Shown here: one piece after another, positions 15,407 to 42,259 of the stretch
Position numbering within the stretch: position 1 is the stretch's first letter
Layout: each line of letters starts with the position of its first letter
NCBI GenBank assembly: GCA_016206925.1
Contig: JACQQS010000017.1
Coordinates: 2,393 to 66,392, forward strand
DNA length: 64,000 nt
Direction: 5' to 3'
DNA from: Candidatus Omnitrophota bacterium
GTDB lineage: Bacteria > Omnitrophota > Omnitrophia > Omnitrophales > JACQQS01
Position numbers and translations under genes: made by a program
Notes under the pieces: generated by a model
Told to the model about the DNA's origin: nothing
What the model saw: only the letters and a program-made list of their open reading frames with translations
The model's database searches: none

Positions 15407-15802
15407 ATGTCACCTAGAGGGCTAAATCCAACCATTATGGACTCTTATTATTCGAGTTACCTTTTTATAGCCGTATTTTTCTGCGTGGCGCTCGTTTTTC
15501 CCGTTCTCCCCTTGATTCTCGCCAAGTTTATTGCACCCAAGAAGCCTTCGCCTATCAAACAAGCTACCTACGAATGCGGTGTCGAAGCCACCGGGGACGC
15601 GTGGGCGCAAATTCGCGTTCAGTACTACATATTTGCCCTGATTTTCGTCATATTCGATATTGAAGCTGTTTTCGTTTTCCCCTGGGCCGTTGCCTATCGG
15701 CAACTCGGCCTTTTTGCTTTTGTGGAAATGATGATTTTCCTCGGCATATTAATCGGCGGCTGGGCTTACGCCTGGAAAAAAGGTGCATTGGAATGGGACT
15801 AG
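15407..15802 (+). CDS. nuoA: NADH-quinone oxidoreductase subunit A (copy 1)
   Basis: Three TM helices. YECG motif. Alternative start at 15437 (MDSYY). Confidence 0.85.
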
Positions 15803-16494
15803 CATCCGGCTCCCCCACGGTTGACCAGGGATTAAAGAGCGAATTAGAGAAGGAAGGCGTTGTCCTCACCACGCTTGAACAACTCTACAATTGGGGCAGG
15901 CGCTCATCCATTTGGCCTTTGCAATTCGGTCTTGCCTGCTGCGCGATCGAAATGATCGCCACAGCCTGTGCGCGTTATGATATCGCACGGTTCGGCGCCG
16001 AACTTTTTCGGCCGTCACCCCGTCAAGCCGACCTCATGATTGTAGCCGGAACCGTGACCAAGAAAATGACGCCCCAAGTGGTGCGGCTTTACAATCAGAT
16101 GGCGGAACCAAAATACGTCATCACGATGGGCGCTTGTTCAATCGCAGGAGGACCGTTCAAAGAGGGTTACAACGTACTTCAAGGCATTGACCGGTTTATT
16201 CCGGTTGACGTGCATATTCCGGGCTGCCCCCCAAGACCGGAAGCTCTGCTTGACGGCCTCATGAAACTTCAGAAAAAAATTGACGGCCAATCGATCGAAA
16301 GCGCCGAATGGTACCAGCAAGGCCAGAAACGCGAATTTCCCATTCCTGCTTTCGGCCCGAAGGGTTTGGAACCGCCTTACAATCCAGAAGTCTGGAAGCC
16401 GAGGGAATACGAACAAAAGAAACAAACGGAGGCCGAAGCACGGAAAATTCACGGCACCATTCACGATCCTAAACAATCGGCAGTGTCGCAATGA
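15793..16494 (+). CDS. nuoB: complex I subunit B (copy 1) with a C-terminal extension of about 70 aa
   Basis: N2-cluster motifs [16 protein letters not shown] and PGCPPRPE. A Lys/Glu/Pro-rich tail follows LMKLQKKI. Confidence 0.9.
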
Positions 16495-16958
16495 TTCAGC
16501 TGGAAGAAGTCAAAGCGGAACTTGAGAAGTCACTGGGCGTTCAAACTGAGCTTTCGGGCTCCGGATTGCTTGTTCCTAAAAGCCGGCTCCTCGATGTTTT
16601 TAAGTTTCTGAAAGAGAACGCGAAATATCAGATGGACTATATTTCCAACCTCTGCGCGGTGGACTACCTAAAGCAGAGCCAGATTGAAATTGTTTATCAT
16701 CTTTACTCCATGAGAAATAAAACGGGGCCCATCGGAATAAAAGTCAGAACGGACAGGCAGGATTGCATCGTTCCCTCTGCGACACCGCTCTTCCGAGGAG
16801 CAGAATTTCAAGAGCGAGAAGCATTCGATTTGTACGGAGTGAAATTTGAAGGCCACACCGATTTGCGGAGGATTCTCATGTGGGACGGGTTCGAAGGATT
16901 TCCCATGAGAAAAGATTATGTGCACGAAGACGAGGATAGGTATGTTGAGCACCCTTGA
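16491..16958 (+). CDS. nuoC: complex I subunit C (copy 1)
   Basis: [22 protein letters not shown] motif. Operon position fits. Confidence 0.85.
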
Positions 16959-16968
16959 TAACATTGTA

Positions 16969-17015
16969 GGCGGGGCATCTTGCCCCGCAAATAGCCGGGG
17001 CTAGAAGCCCGGCTA
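16969..17015. repeat. Two tandem GC-rich REP-like hairpins between nuoC and nuoD
   Basis: GCGGGGCA-tct-TGCCCCGC (16970-16988) and TAGCCGGG-gctagaag-CCCGGCTA (16992-17015). Confidence 0.75.
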
Positions 17016-17035
17016 CACAAGTCGAAGGCGATGAA

Positions 17036-18190
17036 ATGACTAATACGATAGAAACACAAACAAGGCCATCTCTCTCAACACAGCAGCTGGAAGTGAGCAT
17101 CGGGCCGCAGCATCCTTCCACGCACGGCGTTTTCAGAATGAACGTCGTCCTAGACGGCGAAACGATCGTCAAGCTGAAACCGGTTATGGGCTATCTTCAT
17201 CGGAATCATGAACAGCTCGCTGAAAATATGAGCTGGCTCGGAAGCATGCCCTATACCGACCGCCTTGATTATTTCTGCTCTATGACAAACAACATAGCTT
17301 ACGCACTCGCCGTTGAAAAACTCATGGGCATCGATGTGCCCGAACGCGCCCAATACATCCGCGTGATCATGGCGGAACTCACCCGGCTCGTTAACCATAC
17401 TGCTCTGGTCGGTTTTCTTCTGAACGATCTCGGCGCATTTTTTACGCCGGTACTTTACGCATTCCGCGAGCGCGAAAAAATTCTGGACTTGTTTGAAAGC
17501 GTTGCCGGCTCGCGAATGATGTGTAACTACATGCGTTTCGGCGGCGTCAAGCTTGATTTGCCCGATGGCTTTGTTGACTGCGCGAAGGCTATCGTGGACA
17601 ATTACCCGCCGTTTCTGGAAGAAATGGAAAGACTTCTCACCAAGAACGAGATCTTGATGGCGCGCTGCCAGAATGTCGGCATTCTTCTCAAGGATCTTGC
17701 TGTCAATGCCAGCGTGACCGGCCCTGTTCTTCGCGCCTCGGGTGTTAACTACGACATTCGAAAAATTGACAAGTACGGCATTTACGACCGGTTCGATTTT
17801 AAAGTCCCGCTGGGCACCGTGGGCGATGTTTACGACCGTTACTATGTCCGCATTCTGGAAATGCGCGAAAGCTTAAAGATCCTGAGGCAGGCCTTTAAGG
17901 AACTGTCTGCTGGCCCGGTGATCAGCCAAAAAGGACTTATTGCCGCAAAGTCACCGAGAAATATGAAAGTGCCTGCCGGTGACGCTTACGGCCGGATCGA
18001 AGCTCCCAAAGGCGAACTGGGTTTTTACATCGTGAGCGAAGGCGGTACCAAGCCGTACAGATATCACGTGCGCGCGCCAAGTTTCATCAACCTGACCATC
18101 CTGGAAGACATGTGCCTCGGCCACAAGGTTGCCGATGCGATCATTATTCTCGGAAGCATCGACATTGTGCTCGGGGAGGTAGATCGATAA
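17036..18190 (+). CDS. nuoD: complex I subunit D (copy 1, short NdhH/FpoD-like form)
   Basis: [21 protein letters not shown], and a C-terminal [16 protein letters not shown]...[11 protein letters not shown]. Confidence 0.9.
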
Positions 18191-18747
18191 TGTGGGGCAC
18201 GGGCGTACTTAAAGGAATGGCCGTAACGATCAAGAATTTTTTCGATACATACACTTCGAAAAACGGAATTTTCACGGTGGAATATCCCGAGAAGCGCCTG
18301 CCTGAAAAAGAACGCTTCCGGAATTTTCCGATACTTGTTTATGATGAAAAACCGGAAGAGCTCCGTTGTGTCGCCTGCGATATCTGCGCCAAAGAATGCC
18401 CACCAAAATGTATTACCATTGTCAAAGCAAAGGATGCCCAGGGCAAACCGCTGAAACAGCCTGAAGTCTTCGACATCGATTTTACCGTTTGCATGAATTG
18501 CGGCATCTGCGAGGAAACCTGCCCCTTTGATGCCATTTACATGGATCATGAATTCGAGCTGGCTGAGTACGACCGCATGGATGCTTTGATTTACAAAAAG
18601 GAGCGGCTTTCCCGCCCTTGGACTCATTTTGAAAAAATCCGCCCCACGGATGCCAAGGAAATCAATGAGAGGCGCGCCAAAGACGCGACAAAAACGGCTG
18701 CAGCTGTTAAACCAGCGCCTCCGCAAGCAAGTAACCAACAAACATAA
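18190..18747 (+). CDS. nuoI: complex I subunit I (copy 1), 2x[4Fe-4S]
   Basis: CVACDICAKECP and CMNCGICEETCP. The ATG at 18190 overlaps the nuoD stop. It sits before nuoH, which is a non-canonical order. Confidence 0.85.
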   Translation: MWGTGVLKGMAVTIKNFFDTYTSKNGIFTVEYPEKRLPEKERFRNFPILVYDEKPEELRCVACDICAKECPPKCITIVKAKDAQGKPLKQPEVFDIDFTVCMNCGICEETCPFDAIYMDHEFELAEYDRMDALIYKKERLSRPWTHFEKIRPTDAKEINERRAKDATKTAAAVKPAPPQASNQQT

Positions 18748-18753
18748 AGGAAT

Positions 18754-18810
18754 GTCATTCCCGCGTAAGCGGGAATCCAGTTGCTAGACCCCCGCTTTCG
18801 CGGGAGTGAC
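18754..18810. repeat. Pair of inverted REP-like units (GTCATTCCCGCGTAAGCGGGAATCCAG type) between nuoI and nuoH
   Basis: ATTCCCGC-gtaa-GCGGGAAT (18757-18776) and CCCGC-tttc-GCGGG (18791-18804). The second unit is an inverted diverged copy of the first. Confidence 0.8.
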
Positions 18811-18822
18811 ATCAAAGAATGC

Positions 18823-19974
18823 ATGGAAAATTTGGATCAAATTTTTGTTCAAGCTAAGAGAACGGTTATGAATCTTGCCGAAAGCGTTCTACCTCAGCCA
18901 CTCGTCCTGCTTGTTTCCATGCTGATAAGCATCGGTGTAATTGCGGCAATCGGACCCGTGATCATGATGTACCTCACATGGCTCGAGCGTAAGGTCGTCG
19001 GCAGAATTCAAAACCGCATAGGCCCAAATCGCGTCGGAAAGTTCGGCTTGCTTCAACCAATCGCGGACGGCATTAAAATGCTGACTAAAGAAGACATCGT
19101 TCCCGAAGGCGCCGACCATATCCTGCATTTTCTGTCCCCCGTCCTGGTTGTAGTCCCGGCACTTCTTGTGCTCGGTCTTCTTCCTTGGGGACGCAATATG
19201 GCCGCGGTAGATTTACAAGTCGGTCTCCTTCTTTTCTTTGCCATTACTTCGACGGGCACGCTTTCCATATTTCTCGGCGCCTGGGGCTCACGCAACAAGT
19301 TCTCTCTCTTGGGCGCGCTCCGAGCGGTAGCTCAGCTAATCTCCTATGAGATTCCCCAGGTTTTCTCTGCAGTCGTCGTGATCATGCATACGCAAACCAT
19401 TTCTATTGTGGAGATTGTAAACGCACAGCCGGGATTTAACTGGTTCGTATTCACCCCATGGGGATTTACGGGACTTGTACTTTTTTACATTGCAAGCGTC
19501 GCGGAATGCAACAGAACACCCTTCGATCTGCCGGAAGCCGAATCCGAAATAGTCGCGGGGTTCCACACCGAGTATAGCGGCATGAAGTTTGCGTTATTCT
19601 ACATGGCGGAATTCCTGCAGGTTTTCTCTTTGTCCGCTCTCGCCGCCGCCCTTTTTCTCGGAGGATGGCAAGGTCCCTTTTTACCCAGCTGGATTTGGTT
19701 TTTCTTAAAAACCTACGGATTGATTTTTATCATGCTTTGGTTTCGCGGCACGTTTCCGCGTCTCCGCGTGGACCAGCTCATGGGGTTTGCCTGGAAATTT
19801 CTCTTGCCCATGAGCATGATCAATATTGTTGTGGTAGGCATCTGGACTTATGCTTCTCCGATCGTTGCTTGGGTGCTCGGTATTCTTATTATCGCGATTT
19901 CATTCGGCGTTCTGGCAAAATTAAATACCCGCTACCACATCGAGCGCAACCGTAAATTCATATTGGCGGAATAA
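18823..19974 (+). CDS. nuoH: complex I subunit H (copy 1)
   Basis: WLERKVVGRIQNRIGPNRVG and the RTPFDLPEAESEIVAGFHTEYSG motif. The start is uncertain (18823 or 18868). The ORF-track start at 18781 translates the REP hairpin. Confidence 0.85.
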   Translation: MENLDQIFVQAKRTVMNLAESVLPQPLVLLVSMLISIGVIAAIGPVIMMYLTWLERKVVGRIQNRIGPNRVGKFGLLQPIADGIKMLTKEDIVPEGADHILHFLSPVLVVVPALLVLGLLPWGRNMAAVDLQVGLLLFFAITSTGTLSIFLGAWGSRNKFSLLGALRAVAQLISYEIPQVFSAVVVIMHTQTISIVEIVNAQPGFNWFVFTPWGFTGLVLFYIASVAECNRTPFDLPEAESEIVAGFHTEYSGMKFALFYMAEFLQVFSLSALAAALFLGGWQGPFLPSWIWFFLKTYGLIFIMLWFRGTFPRLRVDQLMGFAWKFLLPMSMINIVVVGIWTYASPIVAWVLGILIIAISFGVLAKLNTRYHIERNRKFILAE

Positions 19975-19980
19975 AAGCAC

Positions 19981-20484
19981 ATGATCGCTGCATTTTATCT
20001 CATCTCTGTGGTTTTGATCGTCTCAGCGGTCCTTGCGGTTTCTCTACGCAATCTAATCTACTGTACACTGTGCGCATCGGTAGTCTTTATCAGCTCTGCC
20101 GCCCTCTTTTTTCTTCTGAAGGCGGACTTCATAGGCGTCGTTCAAATCCTCATCTACGTCGGCGCCGTTGCGACACTACTTTTATTTGCCGTTATGCTCA
20201 CGAAAAATCTGGTCAGCAGGCAATATTATGTCGGCCAAAAGAGAAAATGGTCTTACGGCATTTTTACGGCTTCGGCTGTACTTTGGGTGCTTATCGGTTC
20301 CATCCGTTCGCAGACAAATCTTGCGGAACTTGTCACAGCCGATCATCAACTTTCCGTCGTTTCGCTCGGAAAAGAAATGCTGACCGCGTTTTTGCTTCCT
20401 TTTGAGGTGGCGTCCCTCCTTTTAACAGCCGCCATGATCGGAGGTATCGTTATCGCCTTGGAGGAGAAAAAGAAGTCGTCATGA
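19981..20484 (+). CDS. nuoJ: complex I subunit J (copy 1)
   Basis: Polytopic, with VQILIYVGAVATLLLF and a C-terminal FEVASLLLTAAMIG. Confidence 0.85.
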   Translation: MIAAFYLISVVLIVSAVLAVSLRNLIYCTLCASVVFISSAALFFLLKADFIGVVQILIYVGAVATLLLFAVMLTKNLVSRQYYVGQKRKWSYGIFTASAVLWVLIGSIRSQTNLAELVTADHQLSVVSLGKEMLTAFLLPFEVASLLLTAAMIGGIVIALEEKKKSS

Positions 20485-20792
20485 CTATTCCGCTTTCGCA
20501 CTATTTGGCCGTAAGCGCGGCGCTCTTCTCGATAGGTCTCTTTGGAGCGCTTACACGCAGAAGCGCAATTATTGTGCTGATTGGAATTGAAATTATGATG
20601 AATGCCGCCAATTTGAATTTAATTGCTTTCTGGCGCTATTCGGACGGCACACGCGCAACCGGACAATTGTTCACGTTTTTCGGCATTACCATTGCGGCAG
20701 CCGAAGTCGCGGTCGGTTTGGCGATCGTTATCTCCGTTTACCGGCTATTTCAGTCTACAAACGTGAATGAAATCAGTGATATGAAGAAATAG
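20481..20792 (+). CDS. nuoK: complex I subunit K (copy 1)
   Basis: 103 aa, 3 TM helices. IGIEIMMNAANL and AAAEVAVGLAIV. Confidence 0.9.
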   Translation: MTIPLSHYLAVSAALFSIGLFGALTRRSAIIVLIGIEIMMNAANLNLIAFWRYSDGTRATGQLFTFFGITIAAAEVAVGLAIVISVYRLFQSTNVNEISDMKK

Positions 20793-20800
20793 GAGTGTGT

Positions 20801-20826
20801 GTCATTCCCACGAAAGCGGGGATGAC
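20801..20826. repeat. REP-like hairpin unit GTCATTCCCACGAAAGCGGGGATGAC between nuoK and nuoL
   Basis: Same unit family as 18754-18810. It is a self-complementary imperfect palindrome. Confidence 0.75.
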
Positions 20827-20836
20827 AAACTTAACC

Positions 20837-22870
20837 ATGATTCTCGATCATCTCTATCTCATACCTTTACTGCCGTTCCTGGCCACGGCATTTACGGCTT
20901 TCCTCAAAAGGCCCCAGCGCTCGCTTTCAAGCGGAACGGTTATTCTAGCCATGTCCGTGTCCTGCGTTCTTGCGCAATGGGCACTCTGGACTACAATCAC
21001 TCAAGCACACCACGGCGAAGTTTTCCGGCACGCAACCAGCTTTGAATGGCTCAGGACAGGAACGCAGGCGCTTCAGCTCGGCCTCGTCCTAGATCCTCTT
21101 TCTGCTTCAATGGTTTCCATGGTCACATTTGTTGGGCTGCTTATCTTTATCTATTCAACGGGCTATATGCACGAGGATAAGAACTACACCCGCTTTTTCT
21201 GCTTTCTGTCTCTTTTCGGAGGATCTATGCTCGGCCTCGTGCTTTCGAATAGTCTTGTTCTCATGTTTATTTTTTGGGAACTGGTGGGGGTCTGCTCCTA
21301 CGCGCTCATCGGATTCTGGTATCACAAACCGTCCGCTGCCGAAGCAGCCAAAAAGGCATTTATCACCACACGCATAGGCGATGTGGGATTCTTCATCGGC
21401 CTTCTTTATCTTTATGCGAAATCGGGAAACCTTATGCTTTTCGATTCCACCGCCGGTCTCGGCGTTCTCGACCAGGCTAATTTGGCGAAGCTGGAGCAAA
21501 TGACGGTCACGCTACCGCTTTTCGGCGTCGCAGCCGTTTCAACCGTAATTGCCCTTTTGCTTTTTTGCGGCGCCATGGGCAAATCGGCTCAGTTCCCGCT
21601 TCACGTTTGGCTGCCGGACGCCATGGAAGGCCCCACTTCCGTTTCTGCGCTCATTCATGCCGCGACCATGGTGGCTGCCGGAGTATTTATGATCGCGCGC
21701 ATGTTTCCCATTTTCGCACTGGGGACGCGTCACGGAGAGATGTCCACCGCAATGACGGTCGTTGCAAGCATCGGAAGTTTCACCGCGCTTTTTGCCGCGC
21801 TCATTGCCGTCGCGCAGAATGACATCAAGCGTGTTCTGGCTTACTCAACAATAAGTCAGTTGGGCTACATGGTTACCGGTCTAGGGCTCGGCAGTGTCGC
21901 TTCGGGATTTTTCCATCTTATCACGCATGCTTTCTTTAAAGCCCTTCTCTTTCTCGGATCGGGCAGTGTTATTCACGGCTGCCACGGTGAACAGGATATG
22001 TTGAAAATGGGAGGACTCAGAAAAACCATGCCGACAACCGCATGGACTTACTTTGTGGGAACGCTCGCGCTCGCTGGAATCTTTCCTTTATCGGGATTCT
22101 GGAGCAAGGATGAGATTCTTCTTTATGCGTACCACCAAAACAAAGCGATTTACTTTATCGGATCGGCTGGCGCATTTCTAACGGCTTTCTATATGTGCCG
22201 GCAGATCGTGCTTGTTTTCTTCGGAAAACAGCGCTCGCATGATTTCCACGCGCACGAAAGTCCTGGTTCCATGCTCTGGCCGCTCAGAATCCTGGCTTTT
22301 TTTGCAATTACACTCGGCATCGTCGGTTGCCCATATTATCGCGGAAATTTGTTCCACCACTTCATTTCACCCGAACATCACGGCTTAGAACCATCCATGA
22401 CGGTCATGCTGAGTTCAACGGTTATTGCTCTATCCGGATTGATTTTGGGATTCCTGGTCTACGGCCGATCCAAAGCCGTTGAAAAAGGAACGGATCCGCT
22501 CAGGAATACGCTTGGCCTCCTTCACATCATTCTCGAAAACAAGTTTTATTTCGACGAGCTTTACCGAAACACGGCTCTTCGTGCTGCAAACTTTCTTGCC
22601 TCATTCTTTCGCGCCTTTGATCAGCTCATCATTGACGGGATTCTCCATACGGTCGGATTCATCGCGCTCACTCTATCTACGTTTAACCAGTGGTGCGATA
22701 ATTTCTTTATTAACGGCGGTTTCGACCGGAGTTGCTCGGGCATTCTGCGGGGCGGCGAAACAATGTCGGCTTTGCAGACGGGCCGCATTCAGGATTACCT
22801 GCGATTCACAGCTTTGGGAACCGTGTTTTTTTATTTGGCGTACATGATAACCTTGATTTTGCAGCCGTGA
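20837..22870 (+). CDS. nuoL: complex I subunit L (copy 1) with a lengthened lateral-helix region
   Basis: MILDHLYLIPLLPF start (alternative ATG at 20822 inside the hairpin). [23 protein letters not shown]-terminal amphipathic region carries a 26-aa tandem duplication. Confidence 0.9.
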   Translation: MILDHLYLIPLLPFLATAFTAFLKRPQRSLSSGTVILAMSVSCVLAQWALWTTITQAHHGEVFRHATSFEWLRTGTQALQLGLVLDPLSASMVSMVTFVGLLIFIYSTGYMHEDKNYTRFFCFLSLFGGSMLGLVLSNSLVLMFIFWELVGVCSYALIGFWYHKPSAAEAAKKAFITTRIGDVGFFIGLLYLYAKSGNLMLFDSTAGLGVLDQANLAKLEQMTVTLPLFGVAAVSTVIALLLFCGAMGKSAQFPLHVWLPDAMEGPTSVSALIHAATMVAAGVFMIARMFPIFALGTRHGEMSTAMTVVASIGSFTALFAALIAVAQNDIKRVLAYSTISQLGYMVTGLGLGSVASGFFHLITHAFFKALLFLGSGSVIHGCHGEQDMLKMGGLRKTMPTTAWTYFVGTLALAGIFPLSGFWSKDEILLYAYHQNKAIYFIGSAGAFLTAFYMCRQIVLVFFGKQRSHDFHAHESPGSMLWPLRILAFFAITLGIVGCPYYRGNLFHHFISPEHHGLEPSMTVMLSSTVIALSGLILGFLVYGRSKAVEKGTDPLRNTLGLLHIILENKFYFDELYRNTALRAANFLASFFRAFDQLIIDGILHTVGFIALTLSTFNQWCDNFFINGGFDRSCSGILRGGETMSALQTGRIQDYLRFTALGTVFFYLAYMITLILQP

Positions 22871-22873: not shown

Positions 22874-24421
22874 ATGGAATTGCCTGCGCTTAGCTTAATT
22901 ACATTTTCCCCGCTTGCCGGCGCATTCTTGCTGATATTTTTATCCGGCAAGGACGAAAAGATCATAAAAGGCGTTTCTTTGGCTGCAAGCTTTCTGCCTT
23001 TGATCATACTGACCAATGTGTGGTCCCGGTTTGACCCGTTGTCGGCATCACTGCAATTGATTGAGCGCGTTCCTTGGATACCGGTAATGGGCGCGGAGTA
23101 TTTTCTCGGCGTGGACGGTCTTGGCATGTTGCTCGTTCTCCTGACGGCCATTATTTCCCCCATCGCTGTCCTTGCATCTTTCGGGATACATGAGCGCCCG
23201 AAAGCATACATGCTTTTATTTCTGATTCTTCTTACAGGAATTTTTGGCGTATTCACGGCGCAAAATTTCTTTCATTTCTTCCTATACTGGGAAATCGGCC
23301 TTGTGCCCATGTTTTTTCTCATCAAGCAATGGGGCGCGGAAAACCGCGATTATGCGGCTTTTAAATTTTTCGTGTTTACGCTTTTTGGAAGTATCGCAAT
23401 GCTTCTTGCGTTCCAAGTCATCTTTCTTGCGACAGGCACGTTTGACTTTGTGAGGCTTTCCGAAATGGGCAGAAGCGGCGAGCTTTCAAAACTTCTCGCA
23501 CAATTCGCATCCAAGGCAGGAATTCCGTGGCAGGCAAGCACACTTTCCCTCATTGGATTTCTGGCCGTTTCTCTGGCATTTACAATCAAGGTGCCCATCT
23601 GGCCGTTCCATACCTGGCTCCCCGACGCACACACGCAGGCGCCAACACCGGCTTCCATAGTGCTGGCCGCTCTTCTGCTTAAAATGGGAACGTACGGTTT
23701 TTTAAGAATCGCCATGCCGCTTTTTCCGGAGACCGCCAAAGCGCTTGCTGAACCTCTGGCTTATTTCGCGCTCGCAAGCATCATATTCGGCGCGTTTGCA
23801 GCCATGGCCCAGCGGGATCTAAAACGCATGATTGCCTACTCCTCGATCAATCACATGGGTTACTGCATGCTTGGAATTTTTGCAATCGCTTCTATGTCTT
23901 CGACGGATGTTGAAGCCAAGGCCGCCGCGTTGGGAGGATCCATTCTTCAAATGTTTAACCATGGAATCACCGCTGCCGCACTTTTCTTCATGGTGGGTGT
24001 GATTTATGACCGCAAGCATACCCGCAATTTAGAGAAATTTGGAGGTCTGCGCGCCATTATGCCGGTCTATGCCGGACTTATGGTCATTTCTACATTTGCC
24101 TCTGTCGGTCTCCCCGGATTGAACGGGTTTGTAAGCGAATTCCTGATTTTCCGCGGGACTTTTGTTGTGTTTCAACCCCTTACCATTCTGGCGACGATCG
24201 GGCTGGTTGTGACGGCTTTGTACTACCTGCGCATGATCCAGCAGATGTTCCTCGGCCCGCTCAATCCGGATTGCGAAGGCCTTCCCGACATGTCAAAAAG
24301 GGAAATATTCGTCGCTTCGCCGCTCATCGCGCTTATGTTTTTGATCGGAATATGGCCGGGACCTATGCTCAAGCTTACGAATGCGGTGGCTCTCAATTTA
24401 ATCGGAGTTTTTCAGCTATGA
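22874..24421 (+). CDS. nuoM: complex I subunit M (operon 1, first copy)
   Basis: WLPDAHTQAPTPASIVLAALLLKMGTYGFLR. 515 aa. Confidence 0.9.
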   Translation: MELPALSLITFSPLAGAFLLIFLSGKDEKIIKGVSLAASFLPLIILTNVWSRFDPLSASLQLIERVPWIPVMGAEYFLGVDGLGMLLVLLTAIISPIAVLASFGIHERPKAYMLLFLILLTGIFGVFTAQNFFHFFLYWEIGLVPMFFLIKQWGAENRDYAAFKFFVFTLFGSIAMLLAFQVIFLATGTFDFVRLSEMGRSGELSKLLAQFASKAGIPWQASTLSLIGFLAVSLAFTIKVPIWPFHTWLPDAHTQAPTPASIVLAALLLKMGTYGFLRIAMPLFPETAKALAEPLAYFALASIIFGAFAAMAQRDLKRMIAYSSINHMGYCMLGIFAIASMSSTDVEAKAAALGGSILQMFNHGITAAALFFMVGVIYDRKHTRNLEKFGGLRAIMPVYAGLMVISTFASVGLPGLNGFVSEFLIFRGTFVVFQPLTILATIGLVVTALYYLRMIQQMFLGPLNPDCEGLPDMSKREIFVASPLIALMFLIGIWPGPMLKLTNAVALNLIGVFQL

Positions 24422-25962
24422 TCCTGTCTTCAACAATTTTCATCCCCCTGGGCGCTGCTACCCTCGTGATGCTTATGAAACCCCAATGGAGACGTGAAAT
24501 CAAAATCATCTCAGCCATGTCCGGGGTGCTCTGTCTCGTCATTTCCGCATACCTCTGTCTTACCTATGACACGGCTAAAGGCGGGCTTCAATTTGTCGAA
24601 ATGCGCCCATGGATTCCGACGCTCGGCGCAAGTTACTACCTCGGCGTGGACGGCATGAACCTCTCTTTAGTACTGCTTACCGCGTTCATCATGCTCACCG
24701 GAGTTTTTATCGCCTGGAATATAGACGACCGGACAAAGGAATTTTTCGCGCTTTTTCTCATTCTCGTCTCCGGCGTTTTCGGCGTGTTCGTCTCTATGGA
24801 TCTTTTTCTGCTTTTTATTTTCTACGAGCTGGCCGTTCTACCTATGTACCTCCTGATCGGCTATTGGGGTTCCACCAGAAAAGAGTACGGCGCCATGAAA
24901 CTGACGCTCTATCTTTTAGCGGGAAGCGCGCTTCTCTTTTTTGGAATGCTTGCCCTTTACTTTAAGGCCAATATCTGGAGTTTCAATCTGACCGAACTGG
25001 CAAAGATCAGCTATCCGGAATCTTTCCAGAAATGGGTTTTCCCTTTTATTTTTGTCGGCTTCGCCGTTCTCGGAGGCCTCTGGCCTTTGCACACCTGGTC
25101 CCCCGTCGGACACGTTGCGGCTCCAACTTCCGTGAGCATGCTGCACGCCGGCGTTCTTATGAAACTCGGAGCTTACGGCTGCCTCCGTGTCGCTATCCTG
25201 ACTTTCCCGCAGGGCGCTCAATTTTGGGCACCTTACATCGCTGCGCTGACGGCAGTGAATATTGTTTACGGCTCCATGGTAGCCATGGTGCAGACGGATA
25301 CAAAATATGTCATTGGATATTCCAGCGTGAGTCATATGGGATTTGTGATACTCGGACTTTGTACGCTGAACGAGGCGGGAATATCGGGCGCCGTGCTTCA
25401 AATGTTTTCGCATGGAATCATGACGGGGCTTTTCTTTGCCGTGGTCGGCCGGTTCATTTACGACCGTACGCACACACGAGAACTGAAGGACTTGGGCGGC
25501 CTTAGAAAACCCCTGCCCTGGGCTAACGTGGCGTTTATTATTGCCGGCCTGGCTTCGATGGGTCTGCCCGGCTTATCCGGCTTTATTGCCGAACTCCATA
25601 TTTTAATCGGCGTTTGGGAACGGTTCCCCCTCATTGCCGCACTCTGCGGAATTGCCATCGTCATCACCGCGGCATATATTTTGAGGGTTATTCACCGCAC
25701 ATTTTACGGAGAGCTGAATCCGAAATTTGCAAGTCTCCCGCCGGAAACCATTCAGGAAAAAGTGAGTGTTGCTATACTTTGCGCAGTGCTCATCGTAGTC
25801 GGTATATATCCCGTCGTTCTCCTTGATACCATCCACTCGGCGGTTGATCCCACGGTTAAGCTGCTTCACCACGTGCAGCCGGCGGTGCCGCTTGAGCAAA
25901 TAACGCCGCCAACAACCTCGGTTCAAGCTGTAACCGGCGCCGTAGCAACGGTGACGGTATGA
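24418..25962 (+). CDS. nuoM: complex I subunit M-like (operon 1, second, more divergent copy)
   Basis: ATGA overlap with the preceding nuoM. HTWSPVGHVAAPTSVSMLHAGVLMKLGAYG. 514 aa. Confidence 0.85.
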   Translation: MILSSTIFIPLGAATLVMLMKPQWRREIKIISAMSGVLCLVISAYLCLTYDTAKGGLQFVEMRPWIPTLGASYYLGVDGMNLSLVLLTAFIMLTGVFIAWNIDDRTKEFFALFLILVSGVFGVFVSMDLFLLFIFYELAVLPMYLLIGYWGSTRKEYGAMKLTLYLLAGSALLFFGMLALYFKANIWSFNLTELAKISYPESFQKWVFPFIFVGFAVLGGLWPLHTWSPVGHVAAPTSVSMLHAGVLMKLGAYGCLRVAILTFPQGAQFWAPYIAALTAVNIVYGSMVAMVQTDTKYVIGYSSVSHMGFVILGLCTLNEAGISGAVLQMFSHGIMTGLFFAVVGRFIYDRTHTRELKDLGGLRKPLPWANVAFIIAGLASMGLPGLSGFIAELHILIGVWERFPLIAALCGIAIVITAAYILRVIHRTFYGELNPKFASLPPETIQEKVSVAILCAVLIVVGIYPVVLLDTIHSAVDPTVKLLHHVQPAVPLEQITPPTTSVQAVTGAVATVTV

Positions 25963-27473
25963 ATTATATGACGGTTCTCTATCATTTAATTCCCGAAACT
26001 ACGATTACTATTCTCATTTTTGTCATTCTGGGCATTGATCTTTTCCTGATTAGAAATAAGCCTTTGACCTTTCGAAATCAATTCATCGGTTTGACTACAG
26101 GAATGGGTCTGGCCTTGATTACCATCTGGATTGTCCTAAAGCAGCTCCCTCTCCAGGAGCCCGTCAGGCTTCTAGGAGATATGCTTGTTTTGGATCCTAT
26201 CGCTATTTTTACGAAGATCATCCTTATGGTCATCACCGTAATCACCGTGCTCTTTGCAATAAGCGGTGACTTCACGAAGCATGTTTCTGAATTTTATGCC
26301 ATGCTTCTCTTTGCTTTGCTCGGCATGATTTTTATGATTCAGGCCGAAGAGCTCATCATGATCTTCGTCGCGCTGGAATTGACCAGCTTGAGTCTCTACA
26401 TCATGACAGCCTTCTCAACCAGACTCCGCGAATCAGCCGAAGCAGCGCTCAAATATTTCCTTTTCGGCTCGCTTTCCTCCGCTTTCATGTATTTCGGCCT
26501 CTCCTACATTTACGGTGTAACTGGGTTTACGGATCTTACCAATATTGCCGCCCATTTGACGCCGCTTCCCCGGCTCATGATTTCAACGGATCATATCCTT
26601 GTAATTGTTGGAATGCTCTTCGTTATGGTCGGATTGGGATTTAAGATCGCCGTCGTTCCTTTCCATCTCTGGGCACCCGAAGCTTATCAGGGCGCGCCGA
26701 CACCCGTAACGGCCTATATTGCGACGGGATCTAAACTGGCAAGCTTTGTAGTTCTCAGTAAAGTTCTTTTTCTGGGCTTCCGGCAGATGGAAGGTAGCAG
26801 TTTCCACTATTTTTGGGAAGCCGGATGGTCACCTTTACTCGTCACCATCAGCATTCTCTCGATGACGCTCGGAAATTTGGCGGCCATGCGGCAGAAAAAT
26901 TTAAAACGCCTTTTGGCCTATTCCAGTATTGCGCACAGCGGATATATCCTGTTGGGAGTTGTCGCGGCAACGCATATCGGTACGGTAGCCATGTTTTACT
27001 ATTTGGTCGCCTACGTGTTCACAAATCTCGGAGCATTTGGATTTATCACAGCCGTTGCCAAACACACCGGGGGCGAAAACCTTGAAAACCTGAAAGGCCT
27101 CGCGAAACGCTCGCCGCTGCTTTCGCTGCTCATGAGCATATTCGTTCTTTCCCTCGCAAGCATTCCGCCGCTCGGGGGATTTTTCGGCAAGTTCTACTTA
27201 TTTCTCTCGGTCGTCGGCCGTGATCAGGAGCGGTTCGGCCTTTTGTGGGTCGCCGGCATCGGAATTATTAACACCATGCTTTCGCTTTACTACTATTTGA
27301 AGATCTTGAAGCAGATGTACATTTTGAAATCAGACAACGAGACAAGAATCGAAATACCGTTTTACATGAGTTCCGCGCTTGCGCTTTGCGCCGTCATCGT
27401 CCTTTTGACAGGCATCTTTCCCCAGCCGCTCGTAACCATCCTCAGCCGCTCCATCACATTTTTTACCGTTTAG
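25959..27473 (+). CDS. nuoN: complex I subunit N (copy 1)
   Basis: HLWAPEAYQGAPTPVTAYIATGSKLA and LLAYSSIAHSGY. Confidence 0.9.
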   Translation: MNYMTVLYHLIPETTITILIFVILGIDLFLIRNKPLTFRNQFIGLTTGMGLALITIWIVLKQLPLQEPVRLLGDMLVLDPIAIFTKIILMVITVITVLFAISGDFTKHVSEFYAMLLFALLGMIFMIQAEELIMIFVALELTSLSLYIMTAFSTRLRESAEAALKYFLFGSLSSAFMYFGLSYIYGVTGFTDLTNIAAHLTPLPRLMISTDHILVIVGMLFVMVGLGFKIAVVPFHLWAPEAYQGAPTPVTAYIATGSKLASFVVLSKVLFLGFRQMEGSSFHYFWEAGWSPLLVTISILSMTLGNLAAMRQKNLKRLLAYSSIAHSGYILLGVVAATHIGTVAMFYYLVAYVFTNLGAFGFITAVAKHTGGENLENLKGLAKRSPLLSLLMSIFVLSLASIPPLGGFFGKFYLFLSVVGRDQERFGLLWVAGIGIINTMLSLYYYLKILKQMYILKSDNETRIEIPFYMSSALALCAVIVLLTGIFPQPLVTILSRSITFFTV

Positions 27474-27614: not shown

Positions 27615-28121
27615 GTGATTACTTTCTTATCTTTTATTTTCACCCTCGTCGGACTCACAACAGCCATTCTTGTGGTAACGAGCAAGGTTCCGATGAACGC
27701 CGCGCTGTTTCTCGTTGTGACTCTCTTCACCGTTGCGGCAAATTACGTTCTCCTCGGCGCTGAATTCCTGGCCGCTGTTCAGGTCATTGTCTACGCCGGC
27801 GCCATCATGGTGCTGATTATTTTTGTCATACAGCTTGTGGGTTTTCAACCTTCCAAGGACGGTTCCGTTCAGAAGCAAACCCCTATCGCCATCGTTGCCG
27901 CAGGCCTCCTATTCGTACAAATCGCTTTTTACACAGTCCGTTCGTTGACTCAACTAAACGGAATCCAGAAACCCGTCCAAGCCGCAGTCGACCACACGGC
28001 ATCCTTCAGCCAAACTCTATTCACGAAGTACCTGCTGCCTTTCGAAACGGCCTCGATACTTCTGCTCGTCGCCATTGTCGGAACGGTCCTGCTGGCACAA
28101 CACAAAGGCATCCGCGAATGA
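27615..28121 (+). CDS. nuoJ: complex I subunit J (copy 2)
   Basis: GTG start. [16 protein letters not shown] and [14 protein letters not shown]. Confidence 0.85.
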
Positions 28122-28420
28122 ACCTGGATACCATAACGCTCATATTTGGGACGGGCCTTTTTTTCATAGGTATAACAGGCGTTCTCATCCGGAGAAACGC
28201 CATTGTCGTCTTAATGTGTATCGAACTCATCCTGAACGGCGTCAACTTAACTTTCATCACATTCAGCCACATACATGGAAACCTGGCCGGCCAGGTTGCG
28301 GCTATTTTTGTTATTGTAGTTGCGGCAGCCGAAGCAGCTGTCGGGCTTGCTATTGTCATTGCTGTATTCCGCCGTCATCCTTCCATTAACATCGATGAAT
28401 TTAACGTGCTTAAATGGTAG
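28118..28420 (+). CDS. nuoK: complex I subunit K (copy 2)
   Basis: [12 protein letters not shown] and [12 protein letters not shown]. Confidence 0.9.
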
Positions 28421-30408
28421 CGCTTATTCCTTTACTTCCCGCTTTGGGTGCGGCCGTCAATGGCCTGTTCGGGCGAAGATACATCAAGGAAAACGCCCAT
28501 TGGGTTGCCGTTGGCGCCTGCGGTCTTTCTTTTCTGGCAGCTGTTTTTACTTTCACAAGCTTTCTACGCGAGCCGCAGAGCTACGAAGTGCGGATGTTTG
28601 AGTGGATTGCTGTAGATCCCTTGCGCATCGAACTGGCGTTCCTCGTTGATCCTCTAAGCATGCTTATGGCCATGGTTGTTACGGGAGTGGGTTTTCTCAT
28701 TCATATCTATTCGATCGGTTACATGCACGGCGACGGCGGATATCACCGCTATTTTGCTTACCTCAATCTTTTCATGACGGCCATGCTTCTTCTGGTCTTG
28801 GCCAACAATTATCTTTTGATGTTTCTCGGCTGGGAGGGCGTTGGGCTTTGTTCATACCTGCTCATTGGATTTTGGTTTCATAAAGATTCTGCCGCCAATG
28901 CCGCAAAGAAAGCTTTCCTCGTAAACCGGATCGGAGACGCCGGATTCATTTTGGCCCTTTTCCTAATTTATGGGCAATGCAAAAGCCTGGTCTTTCATGA
29001 TGTCATGTCCCAGGCACATGCTTTCTCAACCGGCTTGGCCACGGCTATTGGAATTCTCTTATTTGTCGGAGCCATGGGGAAATCGGCCCAGATTCCACTT
29101 TACGTATGGCTGCCGGACGCTATGGAAGGACCTACTTCTGTCTCCGCATTGATTCATGCGGCAACCATGGTCACGGCCGGTGTCTATATGGTGGCTAGAA
29201 ATTCGGCCATCTATGCGCTGGCACCGGCTGCACTTAATTTCATGGCTTCTGTCGGCGCAATTACCGCACTTTTTGCGGCAAGCATTGCCCTGGTTCAAAG
29301 GGACATAAAGAAGGTACTTGCTTATTCGACGGTAAGCCAGCTCGGTTACATGTTTCTCAGCTGCGGTGTGGGCGCTTATGTAAGCGGCATGTTTCATTTA
29401 ATGACACACGCATTCTTCAAAGGCCTTCTTTTCCTCGGATCCGGAAGCGTGATTCACGCGCTCGGCGGCGAACAAGACATGCAGCACATGGGTGGTTTAA
29501 GAAAACATATGCCCATTACCGCAGCAACGTTTACCATCGCAACCCTCGCCATCGCCGGAATTCCGCCGCTTGCCGGCTTCTGGAGCAAGGATGAAATCCT
29601 GGCGGAAACCTTCAAGAACGGGCATAAACTCCTCTGGGGAATCGGTGCATTAACGGCGCTCATGACATCCTTCTACATGTTCCGCCTGCTTTTCCTGACC
29701 TTCTACGGAAAGTCGCGCGTTCACCATGACAAGGAACATCATCTTCATGAATCGCCCCGGACCATTACGATTCCTCTTTCGATACTTGCCTTTCTTTCGA
29801 TTTTTGGCGGCGTCCTGCCCGGCTTCCCTCCCGAACGAGGCTGGATCCACGGTTTTCTTTCTCCGGCGATCTCAAGCGTTCACCATGCGAAGGAAATCCT
29901 GCATGGCGCAGCCGAACACGGCGCGCATGCCCTGTCATTGCTGGACTTGACATTGATGGCTGTTTCTATCGGCGCGGCGCTGATGGGTTTGGCTGCCGCG
30001 TGGTACTTTTATCTCATCCGGCCGGCGCTTCCCGGACAATGGGCTTCCCGATTGAAATCAATTCACACACTCCTATTCAATAAATATTGGGTGGATGAAA
30101 TATATCTCAGTGTATTTGTGCGTCCCCTGCTTAAGCTCTGTAACCGCCTGTGGGATTTTGATCTGCAGGGCATTGATGGAATCGTAAACGGAGCATCACG
30201 CGTTGCCGTAAAAAGCGCTGAAGAGTCGGGCAGATTTGATCTCAAATTTATCGATGGCGTTATAAACGATATCGGAAAACTTTTCGACAAGTGGCACGAC
30301 ATCTTAAGACGGTGGCAAACGGGTTTCGTACAGAATTATGCGCTCGTCATGGTCATCGGTGTATTGGTTCTGGCAACCAGCATGTTTTTCATCCCATATC
30401 ACTTTTGA
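28414..30408 (+). CDS. nuoL: complex I subunit L (copy 2) with a lengthened lateral-helix region
   Basis: [23 protein letters not shown]-terminal [11 protein letters not shown].../[11 protein letters not shown]... 26-aa tandem repeat. Confidence 0.9.
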
Positions 30409-30416
30409 AAAATTTA

Positions 30417-30516
30417 AAATTAAAAGTGAAAAATGTAAAAGAAAAAACTAAAGAAATTTATTAAAGCAAAAAAGTTCAAAAAGCTCTTTATCTTTTTACT
30501 TTTTCATTTTTAATTT
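30417..30516. repeat. AT-rich imperfect inverted repeat (about 26-bp arms, 48-nt loop) between nuoL2 and nuoM
   Basis: AAATTAAAAGTGAAAAATGTAAAAGA (30417-30442) versus the reverse complement of TCTTTTTACTTTTTCATTTTTAATTT (30491-30516). One mismatch and two 1-nt indels. Confidence 0.65.
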
Positions 30517-30530
30517 CTAAGAGGATTTTT

Positions 30531-32102
30531 ATGACACATATCTTTGGCACTCCCATTCTCACGCTTTTATGCTTCTTGCCCCTCATCGGAACGCTGGCTA
30601 TCGTGATTTTCACGCGTAAAGATGAGGAGAAAAAAATCAAAAACATCGCGCTGTGGTTCTCGGTGGCGGCTTTTCTCATCTCGCTTTTGATCCTTCCCCG
30701 TTTTCGAACTGACACGGCGGAAATGCAGTTTGTAGAACGAGCCGAATGGATTCCCGCTATCGGGGCAGAATATCTCCTGGGCATCGACGGTATCAGCATT
30801 CTGCTTATCCTGCTGACCACACTTCTAACCGTCATCGCTGTTTTATCTTCATCTACAGCCATTACTGATCGGCTAAAAGAATACTATGGCTCGCTGCTTT
30901 TGCTTGAAACGGGGATGCTCGGAGTATTCATGGCTCTTGATTTCGTTCTCTTTTACGTTTTCTGGGAAGTCATGCTGGTGCCCATGTATTTTCTGATCGG
31001 AATTTGGGGTGGACCCAACCGGCTTTACGCGGCCATCAAATTTTTTCTCTATACGCTCTTCGGGAGCGTTTTGATGCTCCTCGGAATTCTGGCGCTTTAT
31101 TTCCTGAATGCAGATCCGGCATTCGGCAGCGGGGAGCATACATTCAATATGATTACACTTTTTAATGTCCAGCTGCCTTTCCATTTTCAATGCTGGATAT
31201 TTGCCGCGTTCTTTATCGGATTTGCCATCAAGGTCCCTGTCTTCCCGTTTCACACATGGCTGCCGGACGCCCACGTCGAAGCGCCCACCGCGGGAAGCGT
31301 CATCCTCGCCGGCGTTCTGCTAAAAATGGGTACGTACGGCTTCATTCGCGTATGCCTTCCGATGCTGCCCCAGGCATCGGAATTTTTTGCGCCTTTTGTC
31401 GCTGTGTTGGCCATGATCGGCATAGTTTACGGCGCCTTAGTGGCCATGGCGCAAACCGATATCAAAAAATTGGTGGCCTACTCAAGCGTGAGCCATCTTG
31501 GTTTTGTAATGCTCGGGCTTTTTGCCATGAATTCCCAGGGGATAACGGGCGGCGTGCTTCAGATGATCAATCACGGCATATCGACAGGGGCGCTCTTCTT
31601 GCTGGTGGGCATTATTTACGAAAGAAGGCATACGCGGAAAATACAGGAATTCGGCGGCCTAGCGCATGTCATGCCCGTTTATGCGGCGCTCTTTGCCGTC
31701 ACCCTATTCTCATCCATCGGCCTCCCGGGTTTGAACGGATTTGTCGGTGAGTTCCTTATTTTGCTCGGCGCGTTTCAAAAGGAACTCTGGTACGCCGCTG
31801 TGGCTGTTTCCGGAATTGTGCTCGGCGCCGGATATATGCTGTGGCTTTATCAAAGAGTCATGTTTGGAACGGTCACGCATCCCGAAAACAAAATGTTAAA
31901 GGATTGCTCGAGGCGCGAGGTTCTCTACATGGCACCTCTCATCATACTCATGTTGTGGATCGGGATTTACCCGAAACCTTACCTCCGCTTGATTGAATCA
32001 AGCGTTATGGGCACGATTCAATCTCTAAAGCGCCCAAGCGCCGGCCCAGATTTGATGGCTATGGCTTCGCAGACGCCGCCGGAAACTGCGGCACTTATCT
32101 AA
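30531..32102 (+). CDS. nuoM: complex I subunit M (cluster 2)
   Basis: WLPDAHVEAPTAGSVILAGVLLKMGTYGFIR. Strong RBS AAGAGGA. Confidence 0.9.
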   Translation: MTHIFGTPILTLLCFLPLIGTLAIVIFTRKDEEKKIKNIALWFSVAAFLISLLILPRFRTDTAEMQFVERAEWIPAIGAEYLLGIDGISILLILLTTLLTVIAVLSSSTAITDRLKEYYGSLLLLETGMLGVFMALDFVLFYVFWEVMLVPMYFLIGIWGGPNRLYAAIKFFLYTLFGSVLMLLGILALYFLNADPAFGSGEHTFNMITLFNVQLPFHFQCWIFAAFFIGFAIKVPVFPFHTWLPDAHVEAPTAGSVILAGVLLKMGTYGFIRVCLPMLPQASEFFAPFVAVLAMIGIVYGALVAMAQTDIKKLVAYSSVSHLGFVMLGLFAMNSQGITGGVLQMINHGISTGALFLLVGIIYERRHTRKIQEFGGLAHVMPVYAALFAVTLFSSIGLPGLNGFVGEFLILLGAFQKELWYAAVAVSGIVLGAGYMLWLYQRVMFGTVTHPENKMLKDCSRREVLYMAPLIILMLWIGIYPKPYLRLIESSVMGTIQSLKRPSAGPDLMAMASQTPPETAALI

Positions 32103-32105
32103 CTC

Positions 32106-33578
32106 ATGAACCAGACGCTTCCGAATTTTCCGTTGTCCATCCTGTATCCCGAAATGATCTTAACCATTTCGGCATGCGTGCTCATTTTTCTGGCACGCGC
32201 TTTTGCGCGGGCGCATAAACACACGCTCAGCAGCATTGCCTTTTTTTCCGTTATAGCTGCGATGGGCTGCGCGGGAAGTCTTTGGAATTTCCCGAGGTGG
32301 GAGAATTTGATCGAATTCTTTCTGATCGACCGATATGCCATTTTCTTCAAACTGGTGCTTCTGGTCATATGTGCGCTGACTATCCTCATTTCCAAACGGT
32401 TTTTGTCGGATACCGACACGGAGCGCGGCGAGTATTACGGCCTGATTCTACTCGCGACCATCGGTATGATGATCATGGTTTCCGGGGCAGATCTCATCAC
32501 GATTTACCTGGGCCTCGAGACTATGGCCATCGCAAGCTACATTCTCGCCGCGTATTTCCGATCGGACGAACGGTCATCCGAAGCCGGTTTGAAATATTTT
32601 CTTCTGGGTGCGTTCAATTCGGGGATTATCCTCTACGGCATGGCCTTGCTTTACGGCGCAACGGGTACGTTTAACCTGGCCGAAATGCACCGGATCGTAT
32701 CGGGTTTATCCGGACCCGCCGAACTTCGTCTTCTCTATTTTTCATTAATACTTCTCGTAGCGGGATTTGGTTTCAAAATAGCGGCGGTACCTTTTCATAT
32801 GTGGGCTCCCGATGTCTATGAAGGAGCCCCGACGCCTGTCGCGGCATTTCTGTCCGCGGGTTCGAAAACTGCGAGCCTGGCTGTCCTCATCCGGGTCTTC
32901 ACCGTTGCTTTCGGTTTATTTACTGAGCTTTGGCAGCTATGGATTGCCTATATTTCCGGTCTCACGATGCTATTCGGTAATATCGCGGCACTAAGACAAA
33001 CCAACGTTAAAAGAATGCTGGCCTATTCAAGCATCGCGCACGTGGGCTACATGCTCCTTGGCCTGGCCAGCGGAATCGAGATGGGATCTTCCGCCGTTTT
33101 AATGTATGCGTTCGTTTATCTGTTCGCAAATATCGGCCTCTTTGCTTCTCTTATTCTTCTTACCCGGAATGGCGTCCCCAAAGAATCGACCGCTGATTTC
33201 TCGGGTCTTTCGAGAAGACACCCTCTGATTGCATTTGCCGTCACCATATTTCTCTTATCCCTCACGGGTATTCCCCCTACCGCCGGTTTTATCGGAAAAT
33301 TTTATCTTTTCATGGCAGCCGTCAAATCCGGTTACATAAAGCTCGCCGTGGTGGGCGTTCTCGCAAGCGTCATTTCTCTCTTCTATTACATGCGGATTGT
33401 CATGGCCATGTACATGGAAAAACCGGCGGACACCGATGCTGCGGCGCTTCAGCCTTCAACAAGTTTAGGATACGCTTTCTCCATCATGGTCTTTGTCATT
33501 TTGGCTGTAGGAATTTATCCCGGCCCCCTGCTCGATCTTGCACGTGAGTCCCTATCTTCGATAAAGATTTTGAGTTAA
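32106..33578 (+). CDS. nuoN: complex I subunit N (copy 2)
   Basis: HMWAPDVYEGAPTPVAAFLSAGSKTA and MLAYSSIAHVGY. Confidence 0.9.
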   Translation: MNQTLPNFPLSILYPEMILTISACVLIFLARAFARAHKHTLSSIAFFSVIAAMGCAGSLWNFPRWENLIEFFLIDRYAIFFKLVLLVICALTILISKRFLSDTDTERGEYYGLILLATIGMMIMVSGADLITIYLGLETMAIASYILAAYFRSDERSSEAGLKYFLLGAFNSGIILYGMALLYGATGTFNLAEMHRIVSGLSGPAELRLLYFSLILLVAGFGFKIAAVPFHMWAPDVYEGAPTPVAAFLSAGSKTASLAVLIRVFTVAFGLFTELWQLWIAYISGLTMLFGNIAALRQTNVKRMLAYSSIAHVGYMLLGLASGIEMGSSAVLMYAFVYLFANIGLFASLILLTRNGVPKESTADFSGLSRRHPLIAFAVTIFLLSLTGIPPTAGFIGKFYLFMAAVKSGYIKLAVVGVLASVISLFYYMRIVMAMYMEKPADTDAAALQPSTSLGYAFSIMVFVILAVGIYPGPLLDLARESLSSIKILS

Positions 33579-36399: not shown

Positions 36400-36401
36400 A
36401 G

Positions 36402-39061: not shown

Positions 39062-39112
39062 TCAACCTCAAAATTCAAACGTCACCTTTTTCTTTTTTCC
39101 TTTCTACTTTAC

Positions 39113-40393: not shown

Positions 40394-40868
40394 GCAATTT
40401 TTCCTGAATCAGATGATCAACTTTCGCCTCATCCAACGGCCCGACATATTTTTTATCTACGCGCAGCATGGGCGCGATTTCACAGGCGCCGAGGCATTCA
40501 ACCATTTCATACGAGAATTGGCCGTCCGGCGTAACTTCTCCCGGCTTGATGCCGCATTTCTTTCCGAAATATTCCCCCAGCGACTCGCCGCCAAGAAGCG
40601 AGCAGGTCAAAGTCCGGCAGAATTGAAAATGCCTCTTTCCAAGCGGTTTTTGCGCATAAAGTGTGTAAAAACTTAAAACTTCCCGGACTTTGATCAACGG
40701 CACCGATAGAAATTCGGAAACGATTTCCTGGACTTCGTCCTTAATGCAGCCGTCCCTGTTTTGAAATAAGTGTAAAATCGGAAGTAAAGCAGCCTGCCTG
40801 GCCGGATAATTTTTCAGTATTTTTTCGGCACTCGGCAGGAGATCGGTCGGAAACGTTTTCGCGCTCAT
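40386..40868 (-). CDS. nuoE: complex I subunit E (2Fe-2S)
   Basis: FCRTLTCSL and ECLGACEIAPM cysteine motifs. Confidence 0.9.
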   Translation of the reverse strand: MSAKTFPTDLLPSAEKILKNYPARQAALLPILHLFQNRDGCIKDEVQEIVSEFLSVPLIKVREVLSFYTLYAQKPLGKRHFQFCRTLTCSLLGGESLGEYFGKKCGIKPGEVTPDGQFSYEMVECLGACEIAPMLRVDKKYVGPLDEAKVDHLIQEKLHG

Positions 40869-42250: not shown

Positions 42251-42259
42251 CTTTAGAAA

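Follow-up and report, generated by a model that had tools for sequence, protein, structure and literature searches.

An extra 26-residue unit in the lateral helix of an Omnitrophica NuoL, most likely an old tandem duplication

We analysed a 64,000-nucleotide stretch of DNA from a Candidatus Omnitrophota bacterium (contig JACQQS010000017.1; hereafter the window), which carries two copies of the complex I gene nuoL. Positions 22616-22771 encode the distal half of the lateral amphipathic helix (HL) of the first copy, NuoL1, and 26 extra residues make this helix, as modelled, longer than that of canonical NuoL. The added segment forms one of two 26-residue units and probably arose by an in-frame tandem duplication of 78 nucleotides (nt), an origin that can be demonstrated from relatives and not from the copy-1 gene. 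We favour duplication because a clear repeat occurs in the second copy (NuoL2), relatives form a series of one to five copies, some of them keep 78-nt repeats in their DNA, and the family profile of NuoL1 unit 2 matches a generic unit in register. The event would lie far back, since neither DNA-level nor single-sequence protein similarity is left in copy 1.

Copy 1 scores above the NuoL equivalog threshold (NF005141, 643.4 bits, cut-off 556; TIGR01974, 612 bits, cut-off 407.5) and is 100% identical to P0001, a 676-residue protein from a Candidatus Omnitrophica metagenome-assembled genome. Its open reading frame (ORF) opens with a GTG at 20795, three bases past the end of the nuoK ORF (20481-20792). 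P0001 starts 15 codons after this GTG, implying an ATT start beside an ATG at 20837, and the true start of nuoL1 is uncertain. The features of copy 1, including the transmembrane helix TM16 and the elements of an AlphaFold2 (AF2) model, are as follows:

20795..22870, plus strand: nuoL copy 1 (NCBIfam NF005141 (NuoL); Pfam Proton_antipo_N and Proton_antipo_M).
22541..22777, plus strand: predicted lateral helix HL of NuoL1, P0001 residues 568-646 (AF2 model m5ada5f4d385b).
22616..22693, plus strand: HL unit 1, FDQLIIDGILHTVGFIALTLSTFNQW, residues 593-618, a copy of the canonical NuoL 'FD..V(I/V)DG.VN' unit.
22694..22771, plus strand: HL unit 2, CDNFFINGGFDRSCSGILRGGETMSA, residues 619-644, a putative diverged copy with the clade motif D-x-F-F-I-N-G-G-F-D-x-x-C.
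22784-22861, plus strand: TM16 of NuoL1 (AF2 helix 649-674).

Translation of 22616-22771 (plus strand) gives exactly FDQLIIDGILHTVGFIALTLSTFNQW followed by CDNFFINGGFDRSCSGILRGGETMSA, two 26-residue blocks set 78 nt apart, just as a first-pass annotation of the sequence had read them. That annotation had also counted 70 residues between the landmarks DELY and QTG and put E. coli and Thermus NuoL at roughly 40-45. The count of 70 is correct, and the range of 40-45 proves close to what we measured: 41 in E. coli NuoL (residues 546-586, in a numbering verified against G532, D542, K551, P552, D563, P564 and Y590), 44 in T. elongatus NdhF1 and 46 in P. denitrificans NuoL. The extension is common to all 120 of the closest homologues of copy 1.

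The surplus lies inside the lateral helix, where the first-pass annotation had put it, by alignment to NdhF1 and E. coli NuoL as well as in the AF2 model. NdhF1 (6hum_F) aligns to the NuoL1 C terminus in two blocks, with no counterpart for exactly 26 query residues, and NuoL1 unit 1 falls on NdhF1 'VDYNVVDGVVNLTGFVTMVT'. In the AF2 model (mean predicted local distance difference test (pLDDT) 88.9), TM15 spans 520-541, helices run from 568 to 623 and from 625 to 646, and TM16 spans 649-674; both units are contained in the predicted lateral helix, between TM15 and TM16. Foldseek with this model matches only canonical NuoL/NdhF/ND5 chains, the best being NdhF1/NuoL (TM-score 0.72-0.80), and no solved chain with a two-unit HL was found in the structure comparisons, Foldseek included. 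F-D (FDELY) also opens the segment directly ahead of unit 1 (22553-22615; E. coli NuoL 541-563, L008), which measures 21-22 residues. Judged by eye, this segment may represent one more copy of the unit, in degenerate form; in E. coli, D542 and D563 stand 21 residues apart.

The repeat is far clearer in the second nuoL of the window than in copy 1:

28414-30408, plus strand: nuoL copy 2.
30157..30312, plus strand: both HL units of NuoL2, a 26-residue tandem repeat.

Here the two units share 9/26 identities, with a BLOSUM62 score of +38 that is reached by 0 of 20,000 shuffles. The NuoL2 family profile has its best match to itself at an offset of 26 (z=9.2), and unit 1 of the family matches unit 2 with an hhalign P of 3e-12. 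P. denitrificans NuoL has a single VIDGTINGVA motif (residues 651-660), and this aligns to both NuoL2 units. The landmark segment measures 70 residues, the same as in NuoL1.

Wider sampling shows the unit to be a repeat that varies in copy number. We assembled 171 NuoLs, made up of 150 representatives drawn from an exhaustive copy-1 search and 21 proteins from earlier searches. Their landmark spacings fall into classes centred on 44-46, 70-72, 96-98 and 125: the 58 one-unit representatives measure 42-48, mostly 44-46, and 89 sequences are longer, mostly 70-72 with a few at 96-98 and 125. Two or three matches to a hidden Markov model (HMM) of the unit occur in 78 of the 171 (73 with two, 5 with three), nearly all of them 26-27 residues apart, and in a MAFFT alignment the longer forms exceed E. 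coli NuoL by clean insertions of +26 and +52. Relatives overall carry one to five HL units, the Chloroflexi members reaching four and five.

In two loci the repeat is visible in the DNA. Tandem Repeats Finder (TRF) reports arrays of period 78 where nuoL encodes HL, at L011 (11735-11902; 95% matches, score 308) and at L009 (11986-12169; 83% matches, score 249). Duplications of 78 nt in the HL unit occur repeatedly in nuoL. The three-, four- or five-unit Chloroflexi NuoLs are P0246, P0391-P0406, P0419, P0454, P0455 and P0459, and some of their adjacent copies are nearly identical; we found no description of these three-to-five-copy proteins in the searchable literature.

The first-pass annotation had held that the copy-1 sequence itself shows how the extension arose, by internal tandem duplication. 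That duplication is the most likely origin stands, on the evidence of NuoL2 and the relatives; the likeness of the two copy-1 units, on which the claim had leaned, does not withstand shuffled controls. Compared in register, the units have 4/26 identities and a BLOSUM62 score of -12, and 7% of 20,000 shuffles do as well (p=0.07). Their DNA identity is 27/78. Matching the copy-1 family profile (104 sequences) to itself yields no significant offset (z=-0.4), HMMs of the unit trained on clear repeats find unit 1 and never unit 2 in copy 1 and its clade, and TRF over both nuoL genes of the window returns just trivial 9-12-nt arrays. In the AF2 model, pLDDT drops to about 50 over unit 2. The tree evidence is divided. 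At least two units are present in 26 of the 30 nearest relatives outside the copy-1 clade, and a neighbour-joining tree from BLOSUM distances nests the clade among forms with two or more. With Kimura distances, the neighbour-joining tree of the full data fails to nest it there, and only 27 of 36 bootstrap replicates nest it; because the outcome depends on the distance measure, support for this nesting is weak. The failed comparisons, the low pLDDT and the Kimura tree all weigh against a duplication in copy 1.

Comparison of family profiles points the other way. The unit-1 columns of the copy-1 family match the generic unit profile at a probability of 97.6% (hhalign, P=4e-12, register 1-26). 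When 26-column windows of the copy-1 family were slid along the whole protein and each scored against that profile, unit 1 reached 38.3 and the unit-2 windows 12.7-13.8, in register, against a maximum of 9.6 (mean 5.5, s.d. 1.4) for 280 background windows outside HL. The unit-2 match is weak (probability 21-32%), yet it is in register and exceeds all 280 background windows. Unit 2 of the copy-1 family matches unit 2 of the NuoL2 family over 26 columns (hhalign P=2e-5), and MAFFT places NuoL1 unit 2 on the single unit of E. coli (K-R-D563-P-L-N) and of other one-unit NuoLs. Mean conservation within the copy-1 clade is higher for unit 2 (0.65) than for unit 1 (0.55), and unit 2 carries a near-invariant I-N-G-G-F-D-x-x-C. 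The form FFDRQFVDGGFDKGC, kept by members of the clade, bridges canonical FD..(V/F)VDG and the D-N-F-F-I-N-G-G-F-D of the clade. Position 2 of each unit holds a conserved Asp, the two being 26 residues apart (D594 invariant, D620 in at least 90%). We infer that NuoL1 unit 2 descends from a duplication of the kind seen in the relatives.

A different origin would be an unrelated insertion, its length selected as the width of one antiporter-like subunit and its D-x-x-x-I-(D/N)-G likeness to the unit reached by convergence through contact geometry. Such an insertion would account for the lack of significant likeness between units 1 and 2, in copy 1 and in its family, and for the failure of the unit HMM to find unit 2. 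Several independent origins are plausible too: complexes with an elongated NuoL plus an additional NuoM, known as 2M complexes, are reportedly convergent, to go by the title of Chadwick et al. 2018 (ISME J 12:2668) and by papers citing it. The second segment of P0240, of equal length, likewise reads unlike the usual unit, though the unit HMM still gives it 16.6 bits. We nevertheless regard an unrelated insertion as rather improbable. It sits poorly with the in-register profile match of unit 2, above every control window, with clade intermediates that retain F-D-R-x-F-V-D-G, with conserved Asp residues 26 apart and with a 78-nt tandem duplication of this same unit seen directly in relatives. 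That the 70-residue spacing is ordinary NuoL length variation, and the pattern a chance resemblance, can draw on the p of 0.07 for the in-register similarity and is otherwise barely credible: it is refuted by the discrete spacing classes (42-48, 70-72, 96-98 and 125), and the NdhF1 gap of exactly 26 residues and the presence of the extension in 120/120 closest homologues argue against it as well.

Tandem duplication, the reading that we prefer, would start from a canonical one-unit NuoL whose unit has the form (aromatic)-D-x-x-(V/F)-(I/V)-(D/N)-G-x-(V/F)-(N/D) and then a helical stretch of about 15 residues. An in-frame duplication of 78 nt would add one HL unit, and in the copy-1 clade the C-terminal unit would then have diverged to the conserved I-N-G-G-F-D-x-x-C motif. 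At 1.5 Å per residue, 26 helical residues measure about 39 Å, roughly the width of one antiporter-like subunit, and a gain of this size might anchor TM16 beyond a fourth such subunit.

Four antiporter-like genes (nuoL, two nuoM and nuoN) are indeed present in the operon that contains copy 1. This operon 1 (15407-27473, plus strand) reads nuoA,B,C,D,I,H,J,K,L,M,M,N, an 11-subunit complex I by Pfam and NCBIfam; the same searches found no nuoE, F or G in it, and in the window these genes are confined to the other complex I cluster, that of the minus strand. Besides nuoL copy 1, it comprises:

15407..20792, plus strand: nuoA, B, C, D, I, H, J and K (Pfam Oxidored_q4, q6, Complex1_30kDa, Complex1_49kDa, Fer4 dicluster, NADHdh, Oxidored_q3 and q2).
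22874..24421, plus strand: first nuoM, 515 residues (TIGR01972 NDH_I_M, 519 bits).
24418..25962, plus strand: second nuoM, 514 residues (TIGR01972, 481 bits, match from ORF residue 52).
25959..27473, plus strand: nuoN of operon 1 (TIGR01770 NDH_I_N, 391 bits).

The second NuoM, which the first-pass annotation had named, is thus confirmed by its family score. The ATG of its gene overlaps the stop codon of the first nuoM (ATGA, 24418-24421), which suggests translational coupling. At just 35% identity to each other the pair would be old paralogues, and the first copy shares more identity with the second-cluster nuoM (44%) than with its adjoining partner (35%). The L-M-M-N order occurs in 3/3 operons of the copy-1 clade examined: that of the window and those of L004 and L005 (a Verrucomicrobiia genome and another), which share the nuoA-to-K order of operon 1 as well. 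Genes for V/A-type ATPase subunits B and D (PF00006/PF22919 and PF01813; 12857-15253, plus strand) lie immediately upstream of operon 1.

The window also encodes a second complex I, the one to which NuoL2 belongs:

27615..33578, plus strand: partial cluster of nuoJ, K, L (copy 2), M and N (Pfam, NCBIfam).
30531-32102, plus strand: nuoM, the sole nuoM of this cluster.
32106-33578, plus strand: nuoN of this cluster.
35827..43655, minus strand: nuoA, B, C, D, E, F, G, H and I of the second complex I (14-subunit, NADH-type; Pfam).

The nuoA-I genes on the minus strand probably complement the nuoJKL2MN cluster. Genes of the second complex I stand in two blocks: nuoJKLMN directly downstream of the two-nuoM operon and, some 2 kb past these, nuoABCDEFGHI on the other strand, the halves converging. 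Between them lie a beta-barrel porin gene (33846-35126; PF07642) and an ORF of 178 residues without a Pfam match (35285-35821). Searching the window with tblastn returned exactly seven antiporter-like genes, L1, two M, N1, L2, M2 and N2; these are the seven expected, and an extra antiporter-like gene for NuoL2 elsewhere in the window is ruled out.

What the unit might do can be read from E. coli NuoL, in which P564 lies at an HL kink contacting NuoM, and L565 and N566 are nearest to NuoM (PMC3274701). In the MAFFT alignment, E. coli D563-P564-L565-N566 falls on the start of the HL unit, with D563 on the conserved unit Asp. Since the kink and contact site aligns with the unit start, one unit would comprise a single kink/contact and a helical spacer of about 20 residues. 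A duplication would then add about 39 Å of length and a second contact motif, and the higher conservation of unit 2 and its near-invariant motif would fit a specific contact.

The first-pass annotation went on to propose that one extra unit is of the right length to reach across one additional antiporter-like subunit. Within the copy-1 clade this holds, in 3/3 operons; elsewhere the rule of one unit for one extra pump fails, and it is clade-specific at best. NuoL2 has two units, and its cluster has one nuoM; relatives of NuoL2 (from Tectomicrobia and another genome) have L-M-N; and in each of the four Chloroflexi loci with intact gene calls, three encoding a three-unit NuoL (L006, L007 and L011) and one a five-unit NuoL (L009), a single nuoM and a single nuoN come after nuoL. 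These counts weaken the link between the extra unit and a second NuoM. A two-unit NuoL with one nuoM is found as well in NuoL2 relatives of Nitrospinae, Tectomicrobia and Manganitrophus. The L010 locus is fragmented, with room for two genes only. Possibly further M genes lie elsewhere, or one M occupies several positions, or the long helix is accommodated in some other way.

It follows that the duplication might be real and still not serve to span a second NuoM: unit number could vary for other reasons, with TM16 anchored further towards NuoN/K/J/A, with other partners bound or by near-neutral drift in copy number, and the two nuoM genes of operon 1 would then be a coincidental or secondary association. 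The mismatched counts just given, together with the absence of a spare antiporter-like gene for NuoL2 in the window, speak for this, as do HL insertions in the NuoL of three-pump complexes (PMC9040806). We nonetheless think it unlikely for copy 1. All three operons of its clade carry the extra nuoM, and unit 2, with its clade-specific motif, exceeds unit 1 in conservation, as a specific contact would lead one to expect. The length gained, about 39 Å, is about that of one antiporter-like subunit, and in the other genomes extra M genes could sit elsewhere.

A broader proposal, that HL is a modular tandem repeat which passes between one and at least five units by gain and loss of 78 nt, often unmatched to nuoM number, and which acts as a ruler or belongs to an architecture not seen so far, we offer as a tentative idea more likely to be wrong than right. 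Were it true, HL could work as a ruler and determine in how many copies a single NuoM enters the membrane arm; alternatively, the membrane arm would accommodate a much longer HL in a way that no solved structure shows. A unit number that often departs from nuoM number makes it testable whether HL length sets the count of antiporter-like modules in complex I.

Among known systems, the closest is the '2M complex I', defined by an elongated NuoL together with an additional NuoM (PMC9040806 and PMC6606698, each of which cites Chadwick et al. 2018); the same work (Chadwick, Hemp, Fischer and Orphan 2018) is also cited in a passage of PMC7419157. Shared features are a second nuoM beside nuoL, an HL insertion in NuoL and an 11-subunit operon without nuoEFG, and to judge by gene content and NuoL length operon 1 is an Omnitrophica member of this published group. 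It differs in its host, Candidatus Omnitrophica, with relatives in Verrucomicrobia. A Nitrospira clade-3 member of the 2M group is listed without NuoE, NuoF and NuoH (PMC6606698); operon 1 lacks nuoE, F and G but has nuoH. The 26-residue HL insertion accompanied by a second NuoM is already published and is not new. The word 'duplication' has 0 occurrences in PMC9040806, and full-text searches on lateral-helix, tandem and duplication terms returned nothing relevant, in a body of searched text that excluded Chadwick et al. 2018. As one Omnitrophica example added to 2M complex I, the finding itself is of modest value. It supports the view that the known 26-residue insertion is a copy of the neighbouring HL unit, bringing its own subunit-contact motif. 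More interesting is the wider pattern, of an HL unit that varies from one to five copies, in some cases by duplications recent enough to be seen in DNA, and often without tracking nuoM number.

Canonical NuoL, Nqo12, ND5 and NdhF1 (3RKO, 4HE8, 8QBY, 8E9G and 6HUM) share with NuoL1 the 14-TM antiporter core, TM15, HL and TM16, along with the landmarks DELY, the FD..VIDG.VN unit and QTG; the canonical chains have one HL unit (41-46 residues between landmarks), whereas NuoL1 has two (70). Complex_I_1 and Complex_I_2 of Ca. Manganitrophaceae (Yu et al. 2022; PMC9040806) combine a 26-residue HL insertion with the standard three pumps. Their NuoL resembles copy 2, not copy 1: NuoL2 is 60% identical to Manganitrophus P0130 and has the same 70-residue segment. 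In E. coli, engineered HL insertions of 6-7 residues are disruptive at some sites (Belevich et al. 2011, PMC3274701), whereas NuoL1 carries a natural unit of 26 residues.

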